This document shows, one piece after another, positions 36,189-61,489 of a stretch of DNA of 64,000 bases. The notes under the pieces were generated by a model. That model made no database searches and had not been told where the DNA came from. It saw only the letters and a list, made by a program, of their open reading frames with translations. Source of the DNA: Escherichia phage DK-13; sequence record MT611523.1, one strand, 5' to 3'. Positions within the stretch are counted from its first letter, which is position 1. Each line of letters opens with the position of its first letter. Made by a program: the position numbers and the translations under genes.

Positions 36189-36761
36189 TCAGCTTGTTAA
36201 TTCGAGCCAATGTTTTCTGCACAAAGATACGTACGATTCATTCCCACCGACCAATACTTGCTCGCCGTCCTTTACAGCAGCACCGTCGATTACTCGAGCG
36301 GTCATGGTTGCTTTCCGGCCGCAATGACAGACGCCCTTTAATTCAACCAGTTTATCCGAAATAGCCAGAAGTCTGGCCGAACCGGGAAATAATTGACCCC
36401 GAAAATCTGTTCTTAACCCGTAACACATAACGGGAATATTGTAATTATCAACCACTTGAGCTAACTGGTCAATTTGCTCTGGTAACAAAAATTGAGCTTC
36501 ATCGACCAGGACACAATGGATATCCTTTTGAGACTCGGCCCATTTATAGAATTCAAACAGGTTCATGTCGGCCGTTACCAGGTTTGCTTCCTGGCTAATA
36601 CCGATGCGTGATTTAATTTCGCCTTCCGAGTCCCGATTATCAATAACAGGTTTTAGCAAAAGCACACTCATTCCACGCTCTTTATAGGAATAAGCTGCAG
36701 TCAGCAATGAAGCTGTTTTGCCTGCATTCATTGCTGCGTAATGATAAATTAAACTCGCCAT
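36189..36761 (-). CDS. tk: Thymidine kinase
   Basis: 190 aa; P-loop AAMNAGKTASLL and C-terminal Cys zinc ribbon; T4 Tk-like. Confidence 0.9.
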   Translation of the reverse strand: MASLIYHYAAMNAGKTASLLTAAYSYKERGMSVLLLKPVIDNRDSEGEIKSRIGISQEANLVTADMNLFEFYKWAESQKDIHCVLVDEAQFLLPEQIDQLAQVVDNYNIPVMCYGLRTDFRGQLFPGSARLLAISDKLVELKGVCHCGRKATMTARVIDGAAVKDGEQVLVGGNESYVSLCRKHWLELTS

Positions 36762-40981: not shown

Positions 40982-41290
40982 TTAGAAAGAACCAGAGCCT
41001 TTAATTGTGTTCTGGCGACCTTTATTTTCTAATTCAGAATGGTCGATTTCGTATGCTTGTGCTACACCAAAGGCCTTTTTAACTTTAGCTAAAGAACCTT
41101 TAGATGTAACAATATTAAAAGTATTACCTTTGGTAAAATCAACCAAATCAACCAAATCAACTTGTACACCCTGTTTACCGAGGCTTGCGACAATAGCATC
41201 AACATATTGTTGGTCTAAAGTACCTTGGACTCCAATTTGGAATGCTTTAGGGGCTTTGGCTTCTGTGATAAATTCTTGATAAGTTTTCAT
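40982..41290 (-). CDS. Internal protein (capsid-targeted, IP family)
   Basis: N-terminus MKTYQEFITEA matches the T4 internal-protein capsid targeting sequence; start taken at that Met. Confidence 0.6.
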   Translation of the reverse strand: MKTYQEFITEAKAPKAFQIGVQGTLDQQYVDAIVASLGKQGVQVDLVDLVDFTKGNTFNIVTSKGSLAKVKKAFGVAQAYEIDHSELENKGRQNTIKGSGSF

Positions 41291-41338
41291 TTTATATTCC
41301 ATTGTTTGGCTGATAAAATCATTATACAACCTTTTTAG

Positions 41339-41755: not shown

Positions 41756-41812
41756 GTTTGTTCTCCGTAGTTGATAGGGTCATTATAACCCTATCGTTTG
41801 GAGATGTACATC
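41756..41812 (-). promoter_or_regulatory. PeSL-like early promoter cassette (family A) with stem-loop
   Basis: Inverted repeat GATAGGGT/ACCCTATC enclosing TATAAT, then leader CAACTACGGAG before the denV ATG. Confidence 0.5.
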
Positions 41813-42080
41813 ATTTCTTAGAGTATTGACCCATAAGTTTAGCGATATCACCCAATTTCTGATTAAACAAATAATCCACTTCTTTGCCAGATTTATCTAC
41901 AATTTGCCACTGGCCATTTCCTTTGTTACCAAAGGTCCAATCACCAACTTTAAATGAAGTTCCATTAACTTTTTTAATAGAAGTAAACTCAAAGCCTTCT
42001 TTCTTAGCTAAAAATGCCATGCGGCTTTCATCTGATTCATTTAATACAGATTCAGCCAAAAATTCTTGATACGTTTTCAT
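41811..42080 (-). CDS. Internal protein (capsid-targeted, ipII/ipIII position)
   Basis: 89 aa; N-terminus MKTYQEFLAES; located between e and denV as ipII/ipIII in T4. Confidence 0.65.
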   Translation of the reverse strand: MKTYQEFLAESVLNESDESRMAFLAKKEGFEFTSIKKVNGTSFKVGDWTFGNKGNGQWQIVDKSGKEVDYLFNQKLGDIAKLMGQYSKK

Positions 42081-42088
42081 ATTTTACC

Positions 42089-42580
42089 TTATTTGTATGC
42101 GTCAAAAGTTCCGGTGCGGAAAGTTTCAATAACTCGTTTAGCCCGGTTCGGAGTCTGGACTTTATACCATCTTGAGTCTGCCAGTTCCTTGGCAGCCGCT
42201 TCCCATGATTTAGCCTTCAGCAATCGCATACCCTTAGGAAAACCAGCAACACCAGCAACACCCATCTGGAATACCATATTAATGAGTGCACAACGACGAA
42301 CTTCATCAAGTACATCATAAACAGGTTTTAAGACAGGATGCCTCAAGATTCCGGCTTTAGCTTTTTCGACCGAACGGTTAAACAATGTTTCAGCTTCGTG
42401 CTGGGTTATGCGACCATTACAGACGCGACCCATGAGCTTATCGAGCTCAGCACGAGCAACATCTTTTGATGGGTTCTTAGTTATCAGTTGCCCAATACCA
42501 ATGGTCCAAAAACCTTCGGTATCTTTATACAAATCTAACTTACAACCTTCATCTATGCGTAACATTTCGAATATATTCAT
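42089..42580 (-). CDS. e: Lysozyme (endolysin, gene e)
   Basis: 163 aa; strongly similar to T4 lysozyme ([12 protein letters not shown]...YKDTEG..TIGIG...[17 protein letters not shown]). Confidence 0.96.
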
Positions 42581-42583
42581 AAT

Positions 42584-42601
42584 ACCCCCTTATATAGGGG
42601 T
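42584..42601 (-). promoter_or_regulatory. Translation-initiation hairpin upstream of gene e
   Basis: CCCC...GGGG stem-loop sequestering the AAGGGGG RBS immediately upstream of the e ATG, comparable to the known T4 e regulatory hairpin. Confidence 0.45.
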
Positions 42602-42606
42602 ATTTA

Positions 42607-43068
42607 TTATCCGAAAATTTGAGTCATTACCTTGTACATCGATTTGCCCATCACATACTGCCATTGACTCGGTTTAATCAGAGCAAATGCATCGAACTCT
42701 GGAACCGAACTACCATCCGGGAAGGTATGATAGGCAGAGCATTTACTATGTCTGAACTGCTCATGCTCGACCGGAACCGTGTACAGAAACAGGTGAAGAT
42801 TTTTGTTATCTGAATAACGGAATTCACCCAGGTCCTTTAAGAATGCTGGGTCATATTGGGTAAACCCGGTTTCTTCTTCGGTTTCACGGATAGCAGCTTC
42901 AATCGGGGATTCACCAGCTTCAACATGACCCTTAGGGATGTCCCATTTGTGTGCAGGCATACCTGGTTTACGAGAACCAGTCACACGACCCATGAATAAC
43001 TCTTTATCTTCAGTCATGAAAATAATACCAGCAGATAATTCTTTCACCTTGTTTTTCTTACTCATCAT
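42607..43068 (-). CDS. nudE: NudE Nudix hydrolase
   Basis: Nudix box GHVEAGESPIEAAIRETEEETGF; start at MMSKKNK gives about 153 aa; adjacent to e as T4 e.1. Confidence 0.8.
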   Translation of the reverse strand: MMSKKNKVKELSAGIIFMTEDKELFMGRVTGSRKPGMPAHKWDIPKGHVEAGESPIEAAIRETEEETGFTQYDPAFLKDLGEFRYSDNKNLHLFLYTVPVEHEQFRHSKCSAYHTFPDGSSVPEFDAFALIKPSQWQYVMGKSMYKVMTQIFG

Positions 43069-43294
43069 CGCGTTCCCAAGATTTTTTAAAGATTTCAGCC
43101 ATAATAATTTCGATGCGTGTTTCTGTTGAAGGCGATTCACTATCAGAAGTTTGAACTCTGTATTCAGAAATCGGGCAGAACAAGTCCAGGTCAATTTCTA
43201 AATCATCTTTGATTTCAATTTCGGGTGTACCTGTATCATAGGAATACAGATAAGAATCACATGACTCAGATTTAATATAAATTGCAATACTCAT
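43058..43294 (-). CDS. Hypothetical acidic protein
   Basis: 78 aa ORF. Confidence 0.45.
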   Translation of the reverse strand: MSIAIYIKSESCDSYLYSYDTGTPEIEIKDDLEIDLDLFCPISEYRVQTSDSESPSTETRIEIIMAEIFKKSWERDDE

Positions 43295-43875
43295 TTACGG
43301 CATTCCTCAATAAAAGAATTTAATGTATTTTTCTTAGCGATATCGTCGTATACCTTTTTAACTTTAGAAATACGAAAAGGTACTTCAATAGCCATAGTCC
43401 ATAAAAATGATGCAATAAGACCTAAGATAGCGGCAGAAATCGCTGAAGCGAATACACAAATAGGCAGGTCGTTATCTGTTGTCAGGAAAAACCCTAGGAG
43501 TGGGAAAAATAATATCCCCATCCAAACATAGAACCTAGAACTCACTAATTTGTCATATTCATCACTCCAGGTACGAAATCCATATTTCTTACTATAAGAA
43601 ATTAATGGGTCGGGTGTCTGTTCTTTGAGTGGTTCCGGTTGATACCCATTAACAATATATCCCATTTTATATTCCTTAATTAAAAGCTCTTTCACATGAC
43701 GATTACATCGCGACCAATCAACGTTTTCAACCTTGATTCCTTCATCACCATCATCAAGGTCCGCCCAATATCTTTTGGTAATCATAAATTCGTCTCTTGA
43801 GACAATAATTCCGGCATTTTCTGGGCGACGGATGAAGTTTACATCAACACCCATACAACCAGGTTCATACAGCAT
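43291..43875 (-). CDS. Membrane protein
   Basis: 194 aa; two TM helices; C-terminus ...NSFIEECRK. Confidence 0.5.
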   Translation of the reverse strand: MLYEPGCMGVDVNFIRRPENAGIIVSRDEFMITKRYWADLDDGDEGIKVENVDWSRCNRHVKELLIKEYKMGYIVNGYQPEPLKEQTPDPLISYSKKYGFRTWSDEYDKLVSSRFYVWMGILFFPLLGFFLTTDNDLPICVFASAISAAILGLIASFLWTMAIEVPFRISKVKKVYDDIAKKNTLNSFIEECRK

Positions 43876-44561
43876 TACCAGCCCTCCATAGGGAATTCCA
43901 GATAAACTTGAGCATTAACGCGGATTTCGTTTGTAATCTTTTTAACACGGTCAGTGTTACGAGATACACGACCAAACCAACGCCAACCGTTACTTACTGC
44001 GCGAGAACCTGTATGCCATGTCTGCCAATCAAACTGGAGCAACGTGCGGTCAGGAGCATCCCACTTGGTTAATTCATTGGACTCAATTTTTTCCAGAACT
44101 TCTTTATGCCACTGGCGATAGATAAGTTCGCCTTCAGGAATCTGACTAAATTGCGCAGTTCCGGTTGCAAAATAAGTAGGACACACATCAGCGTTAACAA
44201 GACCAAGAATATGTTCAGAATGGTAACGAGGATTATCATAATCAGGTTGCCCTGCGGTAATAAAGTGTTGACCAACCGGAATATCCGGGCGTGGTACATC
44301 ATCATGGTGATAACCTGGGATAGCGGGGTACCAACCAGGCATCAGCATATGAACCCGAGAATCAAATACAACCTGGTCGGTGTTCCAATCATCCGGCAGA
44401 CTCATGATAAAGCTACGAGTAATAGGGCCACCATTGTCAAAAGCGAAAGCCAATGAGCTGTTAAAGAACATAGTTTCGTTTTTGATTTTATCATTAGAAA
44501 TTTTACCAGCGAAACTGCCTACTGCATGAGCTTGAGAATTAAAAGTTTTTGGACCGTTCAT
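43875..44561 (-). CDS. Hypothetical protein
   Basis: 228 aa Trp/Pro-rich ORF. Confidence 0.5.
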   Translation of the reverse strand: MNGPKTFNSQAHAVGSFAGKISNDKIKNETMFFNSSLAFAFDNGGPITRSFIMSLPDDWNTDQVVFDSRVHMLMPGWYPAIPGYHHDDVPRPDIPVGQHFITAGQPDYDNPRYHSEHILGLVNADVCPTYFATGTAQFSQIPEGELIYRQWHKEVLEKIESNELTKWDAPDRTLLQFDWQTWHTGSRAVSNGWRWFGRVSRNTDRVKKITNEIRVNAQVYLEFPMEGW

Positions 44562-44620
44562 AATATTTTCCTCATTGATTGTGGGACCATTGTGTCATAG
44601 CCCCACTTGGATGTACACAA

Positions 44621-45580
44621 TTATTTTTCGAAAGGGCGAATTAAATGCTGGTTAGCTTTGAAACGTTTAACATAGTCTTCGTGACCCAGGGTGTTATACA
44701 TATTAACCACTTCCTGGTAATGTTCCCAGGCATACTCACGGAACCATCCAGAAGTAATGGAGGTGCAGACTTTTTCCAGCGCAATATGGAAGCTCACGGA
44801 TGGAGAGATATTGAACTCATTGGGAACCTGCGAACGCTCCAGAGCAAGTACACATGCTTCTTCATAAACCCCTGCCAGTTTAATAATCTCAGGGAGTGCT
44901 TCAAATTTTTCACGCGAGGTCATAACTTCTGAATCATCTTTCATATAGAACTTATATGCAGGCTTATCAGCAAGCGCCACGGCCTCGTGGATGGAGTCAT
45001 GGTCAAGGGTATAGATTGTATCATTAAAGAAAGTTTTCTTGCCCACGTCTAGTTTAGGGTGACTATATGACAATGTTTCTGCCTGGCGCTGCAGCATGAT
45101 TTTATGCAGTTCGTCATTAAGAACAACACCCTTATTGCGAAGGTAATTAATATGACTCATAGTCTTCAGGAAGAATGGATTGTTCTTCAGGTAACGATGA
45201 GACAATTTAATTGCCAGACAAATATCAGGAGTCGCCCAATAGAAACCTGTAAGACGGTCTTTCTTAATATGATTTTCAGCGTATTTCAAGAGACGATAAC
45301 TTGAGGTAAAATCTTCCTCTTGCAACTCATCAGTCAGCTCACGAACGCTTGTCAGCGCGCGGACAATGTACGCTTCAAAATAGGTTTCTTTACCATTGTG
45401 CATACATTTAAAAGCTTGGACATCAGGGTTATCCACAGGAACATGAGCACCGAACATACGTGCTTTAAAGTGGTTCCAGGAGCCCTGGTCAGCGATAAAG
45501 TCCCAATCAGAGTTTTCAATTTTCTGACTTTCAATCAGACCAGAGTTATGTAATGCACGAGAACCAATAACTAACATCAT
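44621..45580 (-). CDS. Hypothetical protein
   Basis: 319 aa ORF preceded by a family-A promoter cassette. Confidence 0.5.
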   Translation of the reverse strand: MMLVIGSRALHNSGLIESQKIENSDWDFIADQGSWNHFKARMFGAHVPVDNPDVQAFKCMHNGKETYFEAYIVRALTSVRELTDELQEEDFTSSYRLLKYAENHIKKDRLTGFYWATPDICLAIKLSHRYLKNNPFFLKTMSHINYLRNKGVVLNDELHKIMLQRQAETLSYSHPKLDVGKKTFFNDTIYTLDHDSIHEAVALADKPAYKFYMKDDSEVMTSREKFEALPEIIKLAGVYEEACVLALERSQVPNEFNISPSVSFHIALEKVCTSITSGWFREYAWEHYQEVVNMYNTLGHEDYVKRFKANQHLIRPFEK

Positions 45581-45655
45581 AATATTTTCCTCATTAGTTG
45601 ACGAGATAATGATACTACGTTTCTTTAGACTTGTATACTAAATCTTGTACATAAT
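45581..45655 (-). promoter_or_regulatory. Early promoter cassette (family A variant)
   Basis: Minus strand TGTACA...GTAGTATCATTATCTCGTCAACTAATGAGGAAAAT then ATG. Confidence 0.4.
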
Positions 45656-45681
45656 TTTCTTATCACATCCTTGTGATTAAA

Positions 45682-45909
45682 TTATTTTCCTAACGAAATA
45701 CGAGTAGGTTTTTTGCCAAAATATTCTTCATAAGAACCATCTAAACGACCCGCTTTAGACCGACAGTATGAATCGTACTTTTTGTAATAAGTCATCTCAG
45801 TATTATAACGCGGGTGTCTATCAGCCATAATAATACTTAATGGCCAACCTTTGGCATAATCGCGAAGACCATTTATTTTACTAATGTATCTTTTCTTTAA
45901 TTTTAGCAT
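45682..45909 (-). CDS. Hypothetical basic protein
   Basis: 75 aa ORF. Confidence 0.45.
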   Translation of the reverse strand: MLKLKKRYISKINGLRDYAKGWPLSIIMADRHPRYNTEMTYYKKYDSYCRSKAGRLDGSYEEYFGKKPTRISLGK

Positions 45910-46127
45910 GAGCTCGGGTACCAGATTTTACCGTCGGCGCGGGCAACGAAGGTACGACCAGCTTCTTCGCCGTAACAAGAGCTATTCAGCCAATCTTCAA
46001 GACGAACTTCACCGTCATAATCATCTAGCTCAACACCAAAATCCTGAGCAGAAGCCATATCTTTTACTTTCTTATACAGGGCAGCCAGTTCAAGAGCAGC
46101 TTTTTCTAATTCGTTAATATCAGTCAT
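45903..46127 (-). CDS. Small protein, WVSSSxEC-tail family (divergent member)
   Basis: 74 aa, ends GKIWYPSSC; last of four tandem paralogs. Confidence 0.5.
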   Translation of the reverse strand: MTDINELEKAALELAALYKKVKDMASAQDFGVELDDYDGEVRLEDWLNSSCYGEEAGRTFVARADGKIWYPSSC

Positions 46128-46136
46128 TTTTATTCC

Positions 46137-46349
46137 TTAGCATTCGTAAGAGGAGGACACCCAAGAGGTACCACTAATTGTAATACAACCATTATAAAGC
46201 GTAATATGTCGTTCTAGGTCACGAACACCATCAATGTAGATATCAGCTTCTTCGCGTTCTTCTTTACAAATCTGGATAACGTTTTCAATAGCTGCCGCGG
46301 CAGTACGGATTGCACAATCTAATTCACGAGACATATAATTCCTTAACAT
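46137..46349 (-). CDS. Small protein, WVSSSxEC-tail family
   Basis: 70 aa, ends GTSWVSSSYEC. Confidence 0.5.
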   Translation of the reverse strand: MLRNYMSRELDCAIRTAAAAIENVIQICKEEREEADIYIDGVRDLERHITLYNGCITISGTSWVSSSYEC

Positions 46350-46624
46350 TCAGAAGAGGAGGACACCCAACCGCCATTTTCCAGGTCAGTTGTATAGTCA
46401 TGAGTGTTAACAATAGCCCATTCAGGATGGCCATATTCTTCCCAATGGGCAAGGTCAGCTTTCAAGGCACCAAGAGAATAATAGTCACCGCCCATACCGC
46501 GAGCAGGGTATATATTAAAATGAGTCTCATATTTGTTTGCAATTTCCTCGGCACGCCGAATAGCTTTATGGATGTCATTTACTGCGTTAGCCAGTTCTTT
46601 ATTTTTACGGTAATCATTCACCAT
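46343..46624 (-). CDS. Small protein, WVSSSxEC-tail family
   Basis: 93 aa, ends ENGGWVSSSSEC. Confidence 0.5.
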   Translation of the reverse strand: MVNDYRKNKELANAVNDIHKAIRRAEEIANKYETHFNIYPARGMGGDYYSLGALKADLAHWEEYGHPEWAIVNTHDYTTDLENGGWVSSSSEC

Positions 46625-46633
46625 AACGTTTCC

Positions 46634-46924
46634 TTAGCACATTGCCGAAGAGGAGACCCAAGCACCAACTGTAACGACACCGTTTTCAACTTCACCGCCG
46701 TTGTTTTCAATTTCATCTTTAAACCACTGGGAGCATTCATAACCGACAGGATAATATGTACGGCCTGAACCATAATCACCGGTACCGAATTGGATACCAT
46801 ATTCATCTGCGATTTCTTCGCAGTGTTTTTCAATTTCAGAGGTCTTATTTAGAAGAGAATAGATGGCTTTTTCTGCAGATTTCTCATCATAATACTTGGG
46901 GATAGCAATTTCAATTTTATTCAT
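46634..46924 (-). CDS. Small protein, WVSSSxEC-tail family
   Basis: 96 aa, ends VGAWVSSSAMC; shares YY..G and ENGG motifs with 46343-46624. Confidence 0.5.
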   Translation of the reverse strand: MNKIEIAIPKYYDEKSAEKAIYSLLNKTSEIEKHCEEIADEYGIQFGTGDYGSGRTYYPVGYECSQWFKDEIENNGGEVENGVVTVGAWVSSSAMC

Positions 46925-47274
46925 GATTTACATTCCTTAATAAAGGTTTCAAGGTCATTACGTTTTGTTTTGTCTAGGAACTTATTATACTCAGCCATTG
47001 CCGAAGCATATCTCTTACGGCTAGGAGCATTCACTGCATTTGTGTGACAGATATCATAAACAACCGGGATAAAATAAGCCACAACAGCCGGAGCAATTAT
47101 CATAAAGAAGCCCATCTCAATAGGCATGACTCCCTCGATTGCAGCCATAACCGTGGTCATTACCAGACCAACCAAACCACCGAGCATACCGGTGACAATT
47201 CCCAATAATAAATTGCCGCCAATATCATATTCAGCCAATTGATAAACATGTGATGCAAGACTAGGCCGTTCCAT
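46921..47274 (-). CDS. Membrane protein
   Basis: Start at MERPSLAS (AAGGAGG RBS); two TM helices; C-terminus ETFIKECKS. Confidence 0.5.
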   Translation of the reverse strand: MERPSLASHVYQLAEYDIGGNLLLGIVTGMLGGLVGLVMTTVMAAIEGVMPIEMGFFMIIAPAVVAYFIPVVYDICHTNAVNAPSRKRYASAMAEYNKFLDKTKRNDLETFIKECKS

Positions 47275-47620
47275 TACGAACCTCCTTAATAAATTCTTCG
47301 GCACATTTAATTTTGTGCTCTTCTTGTAGGGAAACACATTTTTGTTCCCACGCTTTAACTCGCCCACGATAACCTTTATTCATATGATTTTGATGCCACA
47401 CGTTTATCAATATCATGCTCAGGACTGTAATAAAAGGTGCTGCAATTATTAGTGACCAGGCGACTCCAACACTGATAATATCCATATCCCCACAAACCAC
47501 CATCATTATAACCCCAACAATGCACATGGACAAAGCTCCAAATGGAGGCATAAGGTCTTTATCAATCTTGTCTGCGTATACAAATTTTTCTGGTTTACTT
47601 GGCAGATATAACGTTCGCAT
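47261..47620 (-). CDS. Membrane protein
   Basis: Start at MRTLYLPSK; two TM helices; C-terminus EEFIKEVRNGTA. Confidence 0.45.
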   Translation of the reverse strand: MRTLYLPSKPEKFVYADKIDKDLMPPFGALSMCIVGVIMMVVCGDMDIISVGVAWSLIIAAPFITVLSMILINVWHQNHMNKGYRGRVKAWEQKCVSLQEEHKIKCAEEFIKEVRNGTA

Positions 47621-48167
47621 TTTGAACCCCTTTAGCATATTCACGACATTCAGCAATAAAACGATTAAGCTTACGTTTCCGTTTACGACCCTCTAATGTA
47701 TACTCAGCCGCCAAATCAAGAAGCTCATCTTTATCATAATTTTTAATATCAGTATAAGTTGGGCGGCGGTCAACCATTCCAAAGTGGTCACCATTTTCCA
47801 ACATCAAATAACACACCAAATGGTCATCATCGTCCGCATTAATAAGCTGCTTATAATCACTTGGTTCATTTAACGCATACACAGAATAACTCAGCCCAGC
47901 GAATTCCACTCGTTGAATACCCAGATTTACGTCAATAATTTCCAAGGCATCTGCAAAAGAAAGGTCTTCAGCTAAAGCAAAAATAAAAGGCAATTTGGTA
48001 GTATCGCCGCGACTTGTTGTTCTTCTTAAGAAATCATTGGAATAGCCCAAGTCGCGGCGGATTCTATAAAGAACTGTGTTAGTTTCAGTGGCAAGACCAC
48101 TACCGCCAAACCATTCCACATTTGATAAAAGATTATCATATAAAGTCATAATTTTCTCCTCTCCCAA
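47595..48167 (-). CDS. Hypothetical protein
   Basis: 190 aa; C-terminus contains NRFIAECREYAKG. Confidence 0.5.
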   Translation of the reverse strand: MGEEKIMTLYDNLLSNVEWFGGSGLATETNTVLYRIRRDLGYSNDFLRRTTSRGDTTKLPFIFALAEDLSFADALEIIDVNLGIQRVEFAGLSYSVYALNEPSDYKQLINADDDDHLVCYLMLENGDHFGMVDRRPTYTDIKNYDKDELLDLAAEYTLEGRKRKRKLNRFIAECREYAKGVQNANVISAK

Positions 48168-48191
48168 TTAGGGGGCTTTGCCCCCTTTATC

Positions 48192-48785
48192 TTACTTAAG
48201 TGAATTAATGTATTCTTCAATGTCAGCGGACGTGGTATCCACACCAACCTGTGGGCCTTTGAAGGTTTCAACACGCATCAGAGTGTCTTCAATATCAATC
48301 TTAGTCAATGCAGCGATTTCAACAACATCATCTGCAGTCGCAATACCCAGGGCAGATACCTTACGGGTTTCGCGGATGTATTCCAGTTTAACAGCTAGTT
48401 CCTGACGAGAATCATCCAACTCTTTAACTTTCAATTTAATTTCATTACGCATTTCAACATAATCATCTGCCTTCTTACGAAGTTGTTTAGCAGTACGACG
48501 ATACAGGAGACCCAGTTTAGCATGGACCTGGACATCCGCACCATCAGCAATCAGTTTGCGGATTTCACGCTCTTTTGAAGCGGCGAGTTGGTCTTTTTCA
48601 TTCGCTAACTCACGGATGCGTTTTTCTTCATTAACCGACTTAACGTGGGCGGTCTGGAGCTCAGTAATCTTGTCAATCAGGGTAGACGCTGCTTGAGTAT
48701 ATTGGTCTTCAATAGACAGATTTTTTGTCATTGCAGTACCCAGTTTGGAGCGGATGAATTCAACAAGTTTCTTTAAAGTATTCAT
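48192..48785 (-). CDS. Coiled-coil protein (possibly PspA/IM30-like)
   Basis: 197 aa, almost entirely heptad-rich, charged; resemblance to PspA is tentative. Confidence 0.45.
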
Positions 48786-48862
48786 GGTATTTCCTTCAGT
48801 TGGTTAATATTTTATTATCCAATGTTTTATTGTGTAACTCAGTATGGAATCATTATGCCTTA
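48786..48862 (-). promoter_or_regulatory. PeSL-like early promoter cassette (family B) with stem-loop
   Basis: Hairpin GGGGG-TATACAAG-CCCCC, then CATAATGATTCCATACTGAGTTACAC leader. Confidence 0.45.
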
Positions 48863-48892
48863 AAGCAGGGGGCTTGTATACCCCCTTTTGAA

Positions 48893-49336
48893 TTAAATTT
48901 CAAATTCTTTGCGGAAGTTGGAAGCATAAGACTGAACTGATGCTTTGTTGAATCCAAACTCACGCACAATCATATCAATAACAGCTCTGCGAGCAGCACC
49001 ATTAGACATATTAACAGTTTTGAACATATCATAGCATAAATCTTTGTTGCTCATACCGGAGCGTTTAGGTGCCTTACGTTCAGCTTTTGGTTCAGTCTTA
49101 GGAGTAGGTTTAACTTCTGGTTTAACCTGTCCATCATTCAGACCTTTAAAAATTTTACCTGCCAGAGTTGCCAGTTTAGCAGCTTCGCCACGAGTGATAC
49201 CAAATACTGCCGGGTTAAATGAAATACCTTCAGCTGTCAGACGTTTGAAGAACATACGTGCGGCGGATTGTGCTTCAGCTTCAGAAGAGTTGTTTAATGC
49301 CAGTTTAATGTACTTAACCAGTTTTGAAGTTTTCAT
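48893..49336 (-). CDS. Hypothetical protein with conserved C-terminal domain (paralog A)
   Basis: 147 aa; C-terminal NGAARRAVIDMIVREFGFNKASVQSYASNFRKEF shared with 49789-50214. Confidence 0.5.
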   Translation of the reverse strand: MKTSKLVKYIKLALNNSSEAEAQSAARMFFKRLTAEGISFNPAVFGITRGEAAKLATLAGKIFKGLNDGQVKPEVKPTPKTEPKAERKAPKRSGMSNKDLCYDMFKTVNMSNGAARRAVIDMIVREFGFNKASVQSYASNFRKEFEI

Positions 49337-49409
49337 TTTATTATCCCGTTTGTTTATTTGGTAACTCAGTATGGAATCATTATGTCTTAGTTAAATTCCA
49401 AAGTACACA
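49337..49409 (-). promoter_or_regulatory. PeSL-like early promoter cassette (family B)
   Basis: Minus strand ...CATAATGATTCCATACTGAGTTACCAAATAAACAAACGGGATAATAAA then ATG. Confidence 0.45.
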
Positions 49410-49706
49410 TTAATTTTCAGAAGTTGGGAAATAAACTTCAAAGTCATACATGTTTACTACCGCAGACGCGATTGCCTGGTACTGCATACCTAAGAAAGTT
49501 TTCTTATTCTTGCGCCACAAGTTAACCATTTCTGTTTTGATGCATGCCAGGGAATAGTTGGATGCAGGATACTGTTTGATGATTGCAACAACTTCTTCAG
49601 AAGCAGTTTCACACAATTCATTCAGTTGAGCTTCAATTTTAGCAGAAATGATTGCTTTGTTTTCTTCTTGAGCTTGGGTAGCGTGCCATGCAGGTGCGTT
49701 AAACAT
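49410..49706 (-). CDS. Hypothetical protein
   Basis: 98 aa ORF. Confidence 0.45.
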   Translation of the reverse strand: MFNAPAWHATQAQEENKAIISAKIEAQLNELCETASEEVVAIIKQYPASNYSLACIKTEMVNLWRKNKKTFLGMQYQAIASAVVNMYDFEVYFPTSEN

Positions 49707-59750: not shown

Positions 59751-61489
59751 TTAATATGTCAGATAATGTAAGTTGGTTCGTCGGTGTTGTCGAAGACCGA
59801 ATGGACCCACTTCAACAAGGTCGAGTCCGTGTCCGTGTATGGGGTATGCATCCATATGAGAAATCGCAAGGACCTGTAAAAGGTATCAGAACTGAAGACC
59901 TGCCATGGATGTCTGTACTGATGCCAACATCATCTGCATCAGTTTCTGGTATTCAAACTGCAATGACCGGTATGGTGCCAGGGACTCAGGTATATGGTCA
60001 CTTTTTAGACAAGTGGAAACTCAACGGACTTGTTATTGGTACGTATGGTTCAACCTCAAGACAAAAAGCAAATCCCAACGAAGGCTTCTCTGACCCCACA
60101 GGACAATATCCACTTTATGTAGGTAATGATGCTGCTGCGCTCAACCGAGGCGGTGAGGTCGGTTACGATGCAACTTCGAACGTAATTCAGGATGCAAACA
60201 CCGATGTAGGTATTAACCCTGATGGCCTTGATTTGAGTCAAGTTAAGCCAGATGATAATCCTAATTTCACAATTGAAAATATGCTTCACCGTGATGAAGG
60301 TCTTCGTTTGAAAGTATATTGGGACACCGAAGGTTATCCTACTATAGGTATAGGACACTTAATTGCACCACAACCTATTAGAGATATGAATCAGATAAAC
60401 AAAATATTATCTAATCAAATAGGCCGTGAAGTTAAAGGTAACCCTGGTGCAATATCAATGGACGAGGCTTCTAAGTTATTCCAGGAAGACCTTAAAAAAG
60501 TTCAAAACGATATAGGCCGGCATAGTGTTGTAGGCCCGGTTTACAATAAAGAAAACCGTTCGAGACAAATGGCTCTTGAAAACATGGCTTTCCAAATGGG
60601 ATTGGGTGGATTGGCTAAATTCCGTGGAATGCTTAGCGCAATGTTAGTAGGTGATTATAAAAAAGCATTTGAGGAAGCTCGTAATTCAGTATGGTTTAAC
60701 CAAACTAAAGGCCGTGCATCAAGGGTGTCAATGATTATCCTCACAGGTAACATGGAATCATATGGTATTATGGCCCCTAAAGAAAGGTCATTTAAAGGGC
60801 GTTCATATAGGATGATTCAAACCTTTGTAGCCCCTGCAAATTCTGACCCAGCCGACCCGTGGACTCCAGAAGATACGAGGATTCTGTTTAAAGAGCCAGA
60901 ATCCAGTTACAAGGGCGAATATCCTTATGTGCAGACAATGCAAACTGAAGGCGGTCATATTCAGGAATTCGATAATACCCCTGGACAAGAACGTTATCGA
61001 CTGATTCACCCGACCGGTTCCTACGAGGAAGTTGCACCAGATGGTCGTAAGACTTCGAAGACGGTAGCTGATGGTTATTATATGACCCAGGGTGATTCGA
61101 GTACTTATGTTGGTGGTAATAATAAAGTCAACGTTGGTGGTGATGAAACCTATTACAATATGGCTAATGTTCGACGTCAGACCGATGGAAACGAAAGCAT
61201 TCATATTCGTGGGAATGAAACCAAAACCATTGAAGGTGACGGTACAATTATTGTCAAAGGTAATGTAAGTATTCTGGTCGAAGGTAATGCTGAAATAACT
61301 GTTAAAGGTGACGCAAAAACTCTTGTCGAAGGTAACCATGATTATACGGTAAATGGTAATGTCAAATGGTCCGTTAATGGAAACGTTGATATGACCGTGG
61401 CTGGCAATTGGTCCGAAACAATGTCAACAATGAGTTCTATTGCATCTGGTCAATATACTATTGATGGTTCGAGGATTGACATTGGCTAA
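59747..61489 (+). CDS. 5: gp5 baseplate hub and tail lysozyme (cell-puncturing device)
   Basis: 580 aa; central lysozyme domain (GLRLKVYWDTEGYPTIGIGHLI) and C-terminal VxGxxxxx beta-helix repeats. Confidence 0.95.
   Translation: MINMSDNVSWFVGVVEDRMDPLQQGRVRVRVWGMHPYEKSQGPVKGIRTEDLPWMSVLMPTSSASVSGIQTAMTGMVPGTQVYGHFLDKWKLNGLVIGTYGSTSRQKANPNEGFSDPTGQYPLYVGNDAAALNRGGEVGYDATSNVIQDANTDVGINPDGLDLSQVKPDDNPNFTIENMLHRDEGLRLKVYWDTEGYPTIGIGHLIAPQPIRDMNQINKILSNQIGREVKGNPGAISMDEASKLFQEDLKKVQNDIGRHSVVGPVYNKENRSRQMALENMAFQMGLGGLAKFRGMLSAMLVGDYKKAFEEARNSVWFNQTKGRASRVSMIILTGNMESYGIMAPKERSFKGRSYRMIQTFVAPANSDPADPWTPEDTRILFKEPESSYKGEYPYVQTMQTEGGHIQEFDNTPGQERYRLIHPTGSYEEVAPDGRKTSKTVADGYYMTQGDSSTYVGGNNKVNVGGDETYYNMANVRRQTDGNESIHIRGNETKTIEGDGTIIVKGNVSILVEGNAEITVKGDAKTLVEGNHDYTVNGNVKWSVNGNVDMTVAGNWSETMSTMSSIASGQYTIDGSRIDIG

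Follow-up and report, generated by a model that had tools for sequence, protein, structure and literature searches.

In the hyperplastic regions of T4-type phages, promoter-early stem-loops (PeSLs), which are non-coding, intergenic elements with a sigma-70-type promoter and a terminator hairpin, act on transcription and allow genes to be inserted, deleted or swapped by recombination between their copies (Arbiol et al. 2010, PMC2839356; Comeau et al. 2014, PMC4122927). T-even internal proteins share a different short element, the capsid targeting sequence (CTS), an N-terminal peptide that directs packaging and is cleaved by the prohead protease (PMC3012670; Repoila et al. 1994, cited through PMC12373910). 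Here we describe a C-terminal peptide tail, typified by FIKEC, that is shared by the accessory genes e.2, e.3, e.4 and e.5 of Escherichia phage DK-13 and lies within a 64,000-nucleotide stretch of its genome (sequence record MT611523.1), hereafter the window. These recurrent protein ends had originally been predicted to reflect a conserved DNA string carrying the ribosome binding site of the next gene. Judged from sequence comparison, the conserved unit is instead a selected peptide of about 10-20 residues, encoded variously (six Arg codons, both Cys codons, Phe, Tyr or Trp, Ile or Val), on which the ribosome binding site and a role in recombination are superimposed.

The window phage belongs to the T4-like myoviruses, genus Gaprivervirus, and positions 43000-48300 are 96.4% identical to Escherichia phage vB_EcoM_RZ. 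Gene names were assigned from the annotation of SP18, RZ, T4 and RB69 together with PHROG profiles. All four carriers of the motif in the window are on the minus strand, downstream of e.6, in a block located between lysozyme e/nudE and the tRNA region, and the gene order e.6-e.5-e.4-e.3-...-e.2-nudE-e is the same as in T4, RB69 and SP18. Each carrier has a full-length match to a family profile (e.2, PHROG 2203, E 3.5e-68; e.3, PHROG 2330, E 1.2e-45; e.4, PHROG 2604, E 1.7e-44; e.5, PHROG 8788, E 8.1e-111), whereas a Pfam search with the four carriers gave no match (none at E <= 0.1 for e.2, e.3 and e.4). The peptides FIKECKS, FIKEVRNGTA, FIEECRK and FIAECREYAKG, from which the recurrence had been proposed, are all present on the minus strand. 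The e.2 protein ends in NSFIEECRK, e.3 in ETFIKECKS and e.4 in EEFIKEVRNGTA; the e.5 homologue, which falls just beyond the end of the interval first assigned to the motif, holds NRFIAECREYAKG 21 residues ahead of its stop and ends in NRFIAECREYAKGVQNANVISAK, its tail running 15 residues past FIAECR into the overlap with the start of e.4. At the DNA level, the 14-mer TTTATTRAGGAATG has two exact copies on the minus strand, at 43301-43314 and 46931-46944, where shuffles predict 0.01. Across all six reading frames of the 64 kb, FIxEC is found three times, every time in this block and near a C-terminus, against an expectation in gene tails of 0.011 from window amino-acid frequencies (P(>=3) = 2.5e-7). 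Recurrence no greater than chance, which had been named as the outcome that would sink the prediction, is not what these figures give.

To place the window copies among related phages, conserved e.6 (1,110 phage records) was used as an anchor and 55 loci were collected with their flanks, including those of T4, RB69, JS10, a Klebsiella phage, and Enterobacter, Kosakonia, Providencia and Aeromonas phages; a locus search from e.4 alone had returned only 3 near-identical loci, and tblastn from e.3 did not reach T4. With the search pattern [FYW][IV]xxC[RK] and the tail taken as the last 28 residues, the pattern is found in the tails of 150 of the 1,860 called proteins, against 1.3 expected (maximum 8) from residue shuffles, and is absent from the remaining 191,708 non-tail residues of these loci. 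No true carrier was seen in the 8 kb upstream of e.6, versus at least 130 downstream (six apparent upstream carriers come from short loci that have e.6 away from its usual coordinate), and the gene directly after e.6 is a carrier in 52 of 54 loci, the two exceptions looking truncated. Carriers fall into ~30 BLAST clusters of 84-290 residues with 0 to 3 transmembrane or hydrophobic segments, comprise both membrane and soluble proteins, and occur in at least ten phage lineages, with a variable distance of 0-15 residues from motif to stop. By these sequence criteria, the set of tail-bearing genes consists of T4 e.2, e.3, e.4 and e.5 plus about 25 further clusters, arranged in tandem downstream of e.6. 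Two strict matches in the window but outside the block are read as chance matches: SYVSLCRKHW in a 190-aa protein (36189-36761), whose N-terminus we take to resemble thymidine kinase, and one in the open reading frame (ORF) at 60803-61339.

When each cluster is given equal weight, the consensus reads hydrophobic-[DE]-[NDS]-[FWY]-[IV]-x-x-C-R-[GRK]-K, preceded by a Lys/Glu-rich stretch. Numbering from the aromatic residue as 0, position -3, which lies outside the search pattern, is hydrophobic in 93% of clusters, position -2 is acidic in 50%, and position -1 is N, D, S or T in ~65%; C-R is followed by G, R or K and then by K or the stop. The hydrophobic positions -3, 0, +1 and +4 fall on one helix face, with a hydrophobic moment of 0.54-0.76. 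Glu at +3 is present in only ~25% of clusters, and a prohead-protease site (I-x-E before Cys) was ruled out, this Glu being unconserved outside a few genera. At the edges of the distribution are variant tails of two types: in the Aeromonas phage CC2 type (loci L012, L042 and L043), two genes in the e.5 position end in SFV(N/D)YC(I/V), lacking the Arg, and in the Klebsiella phi1_146010 type (L014, L057 and L059), a 316-aa protein has FIHSCKK ~30 residues from its end.

Codon use in 113 unique DNA contexts points to selection on the amino acids. Cys is encoded by TGC in 57 cases and TGT in 56, and all six Arg codons are in use (AGA 32, CGT 31, AGG 20, CGA 11, CGC 10, CGG 5); Phe is TTT in 72 and TTC in 29 with Trp and Tyr as alternatives, and Ile and Val together use seven codons. 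Since synonymous codons and residue swaps are used this freely, it is the peptide, rather than a conserved DNA or RNA element, that is under selection. In alignments of the e.5 family, at ~15-20% identity, the only invariant residues are the tail F164, C168 and R169 and one Asn, and the tail F, C and R are kept in all distant e.5 representatives found among 1.84 billion proteins. This family is narrow: the exhaustive search of that collection yielded 7 representatives only, and a word-indexed search recovered only relatives of >=69% identity and four distant ones. Conversely, the presence of a Shine-Dalgarno (SD) sequence in a coding 3′ end does not create FIKEC, as 41 of the 53 unique in-frame RAGGAR sites in the last 14 codons have unrelated flanks (the strict motif accounts for 8 and Cys-less variants for 4). 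The proposed check of whether the peptide is conserved beyond what nucleotide constraint predicts therefore comes out positive, both in the codons used and in the persistence of the peptide where the SD is elsewhere.

Many tails nevertheless have the next gene's SD written over them. In the 113 contexts, the best SD lies on the two free positions x1x2 in 26, on other motif codons in 38 (typically TGC AGG AAA), downstream in 39, and upstream or not found in 10, placing it inside the motif in 64/113. Codon choice follows this position. AGG is used for Arg in 15/37 tails with the SD in other motif codons versus 2/65 otherwise (Fisher p = 2e-6; genome-wide background 4.6%), and AAG is used for Lys at x1 in 7/16 tails with the SD on x1x2 versus 1/21 otherwise (p = 0.012; background 26%), which argues that the SD is written into the unconstrained and synonymous positions of the tail. 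In T4 e.3, for example, the tail is FVIDCRK and the SD falls in the CRK codons. The expectation that the motif would hold the SD and sometimes the ATG of the following gene is thus borne out: the SD lies in or just after it, often with the ATG in an ATGA stop/start overlap, and the codons are tuned to the SD.

A pair of genes was considered coupled where an SD core lies 5-13 nt upstream of a start inside the upstream ORF, with a stop/start overlap or near-zero gap. All four window junctions are overlapping genes of this kind with an internal SD, 6-9 nt from the next start in 4/4, and translational coupling is predicted for each. At the end of e.2, the SD GAGGA (43308-43304) is 9 nt from ATG 43294 of a 78-aa ORF, with an ATGA overlap at 43294-43291; at the end of e.3, AAGGA (46938-46934) is 9 nt from ATG 46924 (ORF96), with an ATGA stop/start overlap at 46924-46921; and at the end of e.4, AAGGAGG (47287-47281) is 6 nt from the e.3 ATG at 47274, e.4 and e.3 overlapping by 14 nt. 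The e.3 start at ATG 47274 is likelier than GTG 47367, and the likely e.4 start is ATG 47620. The embedding of the next SD, and sometimes its ATG, in motif DNA thus holds at three of these four junctions and fails at e.5, where the motif codons GCT GAA TGT contain no SD and the SD of e.4, AAAGGGG (47633-47627), is ~10 nt downstream of the motif; e.5 and e.4 overlap by 26 nt. RNA folding of the four junctions gave no unusual structure (z -0.5 to +1.5), and Rfam gave no match at E <= 0.1 on either strand of 42500-49500. As a separate observation, the AAGGAGG of the e.4 tail contains GGAG, as does a 33-nt repeat in a Providencia-type phage described below; GGAG is the tetranucleotide at which the T4 RegB endoribonuclease acts on early mRNAs.

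Gene gain and loss was examined by all-vs-all BLAST of the e.6-to-nudE interval, which gave 53 insertions of >=150 nt, many of them duplicating one event. Three independent gains or losses (e.4, e.2 and a paralogue in a Providencia phage) have both breakpoints in tails, and the downstream gene retains its SD and ATG in all three. First, e.4 is present in the window and missing in JS10/JS98-type phages, with 16-22 nt of homology and a crossover inside the imperfect direct repeat AAAGGGGTTCAAAATG / AAGGAGGTTCGTAATG; the e.5 tail of JS10 is chimeric, FIKECREYAK joined to EVQNGAA and the stop, and leads directly into the e.3 start. Second, a Tequatrovirus locus (L026) is without e.2 and has nudE directly after e.3, the crossover lying in TGYAGGAAAnTTAAAATGA (C-R-K-I/L-K-stop plus ATG). 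Third, a Providencia-type phage (L056) has one paralogue more than its relative (L013), flanked by the perfect 33-nt repeat GTTTCTGATTTTGTTGATGAATGTCGGAGAAGA, which encodes VSDFVDECRRR and a GGAG SD, beside gene bodies that are roughly one-third identical, by eye from the alignment. No sequence other than the tail with its initiation region recurs along the array. Of the proposal that a reusable 3′ end and coupling module lets genes be spliced into the operon, the tail-to-tail events uphold the splicing, while the DNA string is not the conserved unit.

The coordinates of the carriers, of e.6 and of the e.4 repeat copies are collected in Table 1.

Table 1. Features of the e.2-e.6 block in the window
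Feature	Coordinates	Strand	Description
e.6	48192..48785	-	197 aa; PspA/Vipp1-like; directly upstream of the first tail-bearing gene
e.5-like gene	47595..48149	-	184 aa, soluble; FIAECR at 47660-47643; overlaps e.4 start
Left repeat copy AAAGGGGTTCAAAATG	47618..47633	-	SD-spacer-ATG of e.4; bounds the e.4 cassette
e.4	47261..47620	-	119 aa, 2 transmembrane segments; FIKEVR at 47293-47276, Val replacing Cys
Right repeat copy AAGGAGGTTCGTAATG	47272..47287	-	SD-spacer-ATG of e.3; within e.4 codons K-E-V-R-N-G
e.3	46921..47274	-	117 aa, 2-3 hydrophobic segments; FIKECK at 46944-46927
Extra genes between e.3 and e.2	43875..46921	-	~3 kb; absent from T4, where e.3 and e.2 abut
e.2	43291..43875	-	194 aa, soluble N-domain and 2 transmembrane segments; FIEECR at 43314-43297

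How far the carriers are related beyond their tails was assessed by profile-profile comparison (hhalign) of whole and tail-trimmed families. Window e.5 and T4 e.5 are homologous (96%). For e.3 and e.4 the score is 91% over 44 columns of the post-membrane tail and 25% after trimming; in T4 and RB69 both also share M-x-K-P-x-L N-termini, and the two genes are tandem paralogues. The match of e.2 to e.3 (93%) covers the last 19 columns only and drops to 10% with tails trimmed, and that of e.2 or e.3 to e.5 (43-54% over ~20 tail columns) drops to about 0%. To the sensitivity of these profiles, e.2, e.3/e.4 and e.5 are not detectably related beyond a ~20-residue tail, and the description of the carriers as unrelated proteins is accurate for most pairs, e.2 and e.5 having tail-only similarity, and wrong for e.3 and e.4.

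These comparisons bear on plain divergent paralogy, in which a single ancestor was duplicated in tandem and the tail is its slowest-evolving remnant, with no part in recombination or coupling. The tandem arrangement, the e.3/e.4 pair, the existence of recent duplicates and weak PHROG cross-matches at E about 2e-3 (e.3 to the e.2 family, e.4 to the e.3 family) all fit such a history. Carriers nevertheless range from 84-aa proteins with two transmembrane segments to 290-aa soluble ones, with no similarity detectable after trimming, and three indels have both ends in tails. The perfect 33-nt tail repeat of the Providencia-type phage beside divergent bodies points to tail-specific exchange or conversion rather than uniform divergence. 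Paralogy would, moreover, still require a function of the tail at the protein level, and we consider it an improbable account of the set as a whole.

A candidate for that function is suggested by e.6, which is conserved in about 1,100 T4-like phage records. Public records label it 'hypothetical' or 'host specificity protein', and in one of them a homologue bears the name 'phage shock protein A'. The profile built from e.6 homologues matches Vipp1 in the PDB (E 4e-4), with an alignment that is in register from residue 1 and covers 158 residues, and Pfam PspA_IM30 matches 5/26 e.6 homologues (best E 7e-5), the window e.6 itself not being matched. The AlphaFold2 (AF2) model of e.6, with a predicted local distance difference test (pLDDT) score of 74, contains a long helical hairpin (H25-80/H86-145) at pLDDT 80-97, and its top six Foldseek hits in the PDB are Vipp1/PspA, followed by archaeal ESCRT-III; these hits are modest (E 8e-3, TM-score 0.43-0.45). 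From profile and model, e.6 looks like a phage-encoded PspA/Vipp1 protein of the ESCRT-III superfamily. Separately, a GC-rich hairpin at 48170-48186 follows e.6, is also present in T4, and is the only strong GC hairpin in the block.

In e.3 and e.4, membrane segments are followed by a basic C-terminal region (K+R 9), and likewise in e.2 after a 114-residue N-domain, so that by the positive-inside rule the tails are predicted to be cytoplasmic. From the -3, 0, +1, +4 hydrophobic spacing and the flanking basic residues, the tail may form a short amphipathic cytoplasmic helix through which these diverse proteins would dock to a common partner or surface; e.6, which is always ahead of the first carrier, is the prime candidate. 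With genes packed stop-on-start, the next SD falls in or just after the tail and is accommodated in its two free positions (K-E = AAG GAA, E-E = GAG GAA) or in AGG or AGA for Arg. Unequal recombination at the tail and initiation region has added or removed whole genes, leaving the predicted coupling of the downstream gene intact.

We thus consider it likely that these proteins are fast-evolving accessory proteins with a selected C-terminal tail, over which an SD is laid and which serves as a recombination joint, the docking role being the conjectural part. Several observations weigh against this reading. The link to e.6 is one of synteny, and the AF2 model of window e.5, from an 18-sequence alignment, has a pLDDT of 35. 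The distance from the last transmembrane segment to the motif is 14-69 residues, with no fixed geometry. In the e.4 family and some others, V, I, M, S or A stands in place of Cys, and thiol chemistry is therefore not essential everywhere. Recombination is sparsely recorded, with only 3 tail-to-tail events among the 53 listed indels (many of them duplicates), and the mean in-register identical DNA run between tails is 5.8 nt within genomes versus 5.3 between genomes. Tail peptide identity is 0.418 within versus 0.385 between genomes (p = 0.0055, with some pseudo-replication). Tail DNA runs of >=12 nt occur in 3.6% of within-genome pairs versus 0.8% between; general within-genome homogenisation of tails, for which this difference and that in peptide identity give a weak signal, was not retained. 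As within-genome DNA sharing is barely above that between genomes, recombination at tails is episodic rather than a steady process.

A bolder form of the selected-tail reading would have a changing set of membrane and soluble effectors, e.2-e.5 and about 25 further families, all dock through their C-terminal helix onto the phage's PspA/Vipp1-type e.6 at the inner membrane, with the same ~30 nt serving as ribosome binding site and recombination joint. We hold this to be rather doubtful as a whole; if true, effectors could be swapped without breaking either the protein complex or the expression of the operon.

The tail might alternatively act during translation, as a regulatory nascent peptide that, in the exit tunnel, slows elongation or termination near the next start and so links membrane insertion to translation. 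Its amino-acid-level conservation and strictly C-terminal position (0-15 residues before the stop) would suit such a role, as would the location of the next start, mostly within the ribosome footprint of the motif, and the many membrane proteins among the carriers. The aromatic-Ile...Arg pattern is also superficially like the SecM and MifM arrest motifs. The best-conserved copy is, however, in soluble e.5, there is no downstream SD-sequestering structure for a stall to open, and the hydrophobic periodicity with an N-cap-like residue at -1 suits a folded helix. Neither the motif-to-stop distance nor the 14-69 residues from transmembrane segment to motif appears tuned, the latter range ruling out a fixed spacing as a tunnel-length ruler. 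Taken together, this makes a nascent-peptide role very unlikely.

Hardly any weight is left for a pure nucleotide module, in which the conserved unit would be a DNA or RNA string with SD and ATG and FIKEC its incidental translation. Such a module would account for the 3/4 window junctions whose SD falls in K-E or E-E codons, 6-9 nt ahead of the ATG, for the 14-mer excess, and for tails within one genome that in some cases share 14-33 nt exactly. Against it stand the codon diversity of Arg and Cys and the tolerated F/Y/W and I/V swaps, the retention of the motif with the SD elsewhere (39/113 downstream, window e.5, and T4 e.3), the 41/53 in-frame RAGGAR sites near 3′ ends with unrelated flanks, and the lack of RNA structure or Rfam matches at the junctions. 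An origin by chance, or from the composition of an AT-rich genome in which AAGGA is a common ribosome binding site, has nothing in its favour but the prior that short motifs recur, and the >100-fold enrichment, the restriction to C-termini and one block, and the recurrence in at least ten phage lineages leave it practically no credence.

The e.2-e.6 block is a variable, uncharacterised region of the best-studied phage family. A literature search of incomplete coverage found no account of the C-terminal motif, of e.2-e.6 function or of phage PspA homologues, and the AV110 early-protein screen is about genes other than e.2-e.6. One peptide signature ties ~30 orphan clusters together and to a PspA/Vipp1-like neighbour, giving a handle on a putative common partner, and three layers of information share ~30 nt: a selected peptide, a ribosome binding site placed where residues are free or codons synonymous, and a point of crossover at which genes are gained or lost. 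For annotation, the motif could be used to recognise members of the set, to correct start codons and to spot broken genes. T4 e.2 is a case of the last kind: in the T4 reference (L003, NC_000866, 1975-2461, minus strand) it is annotated as 102 aa versus 162 aa in other Tequatroviruses, yet the T4 DNA still encodes the rest, including the tail LNNFITECRKLK and its stop. About 25 middle codons are out of frame and contain two stops, which indicates a double frameshift; either T4 e.2 is a genuine pseudogene or its sequence contains an old error.

In T4, e.5-e.4-e.3-e.2 are contiguous, and the extra interval of the window between e.3 and e.2 contains a 228-aa ORF, a DUF7275/DUF7277 protein, a 75-aa ORF and four small paralogues ending in WVSSSxxC. 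The DUF7277 and DUF7275 protein (319 aa, 44621-45580, minus strand; E 1e-26 and 1e-75) has its gene also in RB69, JS10, and Enterobacter and Kosakonia phages, but not in T4. The four tandem paralogues (70-96 aa, PHROG 899; 45903-46127, 46137-46349, 46343-46624 and 46634-46924, minus strand) have a common C-terminus G-x-W-(V/Y)-x-S-S-x-x-C, and in 3/4 of them (46137-46349, 46343-46624 and 46634-46924) the junction reads TGY TAA GGAA...ATG, with the SD straddling the stop. Related phages differ in how many copies they have, and the breakpoints show 42-43 nt of homology. The PHROG 899 genes have a second conserved C-terminus and junction, which would likewise act as a recombination joint.

Of the described systems, PeSLs are the closest in arrangement: both are short conserved modules at gene boundaries of variable T4-like regions that carry expression signals for the neighbouring gene, and in both, recombination between copies inserts, deletes or swaps genes. 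Unlike PeSLs, the tail lies within coding sequence, is conserved as a peptide and carries a translation signal (SD/ATG), and the block, with 26 promoter-like sites against 21.1 +/- 4.9 in shuffles and no enrichment of terminators, does not have the make-up of PeSLs. The tail would accordingly extend the recombination-cassette idea from non-coding transcription signals to coding translation joints. The CTS is likewise a terminal peptide, of ~10 residues, that forms the sole conserved part of diverse accessory proteins in variable loci and in which the function resides. It differs from the tail in position, fate and carriers: in place of an N-terminal MKTYQEFIAE-type leader with an L/I-x-E site, the motif is C-terminal in 150/150 carriers, many of them membrane proteins. 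Two window genes (40982-41302 and 41811-42080, minus strand) do start with the CTS, as MKTYQEF(I/L)(T/A)E, and the CTS core Y-Q-E-F-I-A-E fits the hydrophobic-x-x-F-I-x-E spacing of the tail, a likeness that is probably coincidence.

With ordinary stop/start translational coupling the tail shares ATGA overlaps and SD cores 6-9 nt upstream of the start within the upstream gene; ordinary coupling, however, places no constraint on flanking residues, whereas here the SD is embedded in a specific peptide that is kept even where the SD is missing from it. In polymorphic toxin loci (CdiA VENN, Rhs PxxxxDPxGL), a short peptide borders the variable part and provides homology for cassette replacement. 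There the motif is internal and the variable part C-terminal to it, whereas the tail-bearing proteins have the motif at their end and the variable part ahead of it. In the Psp system, PspA has the small membrane partners PspB and PspC, and the block is similar in that e.6, a putative PspA/Vipp1-type protein, is encoded beside small membrane proteins with basic helical cytoplasmic C-terminal segments; PspB and PspC themselves gave no match in the Pfam search of e.2, e.3 and e.4 (E <= 0.1). Soluble e.5 has no counterpart in that system, and the interaction with e.6 is a candidate only. The tail module is therefore not a new category, and combines known kinds of element: terminal signature peptides, recombination cassettes and coupled genes.

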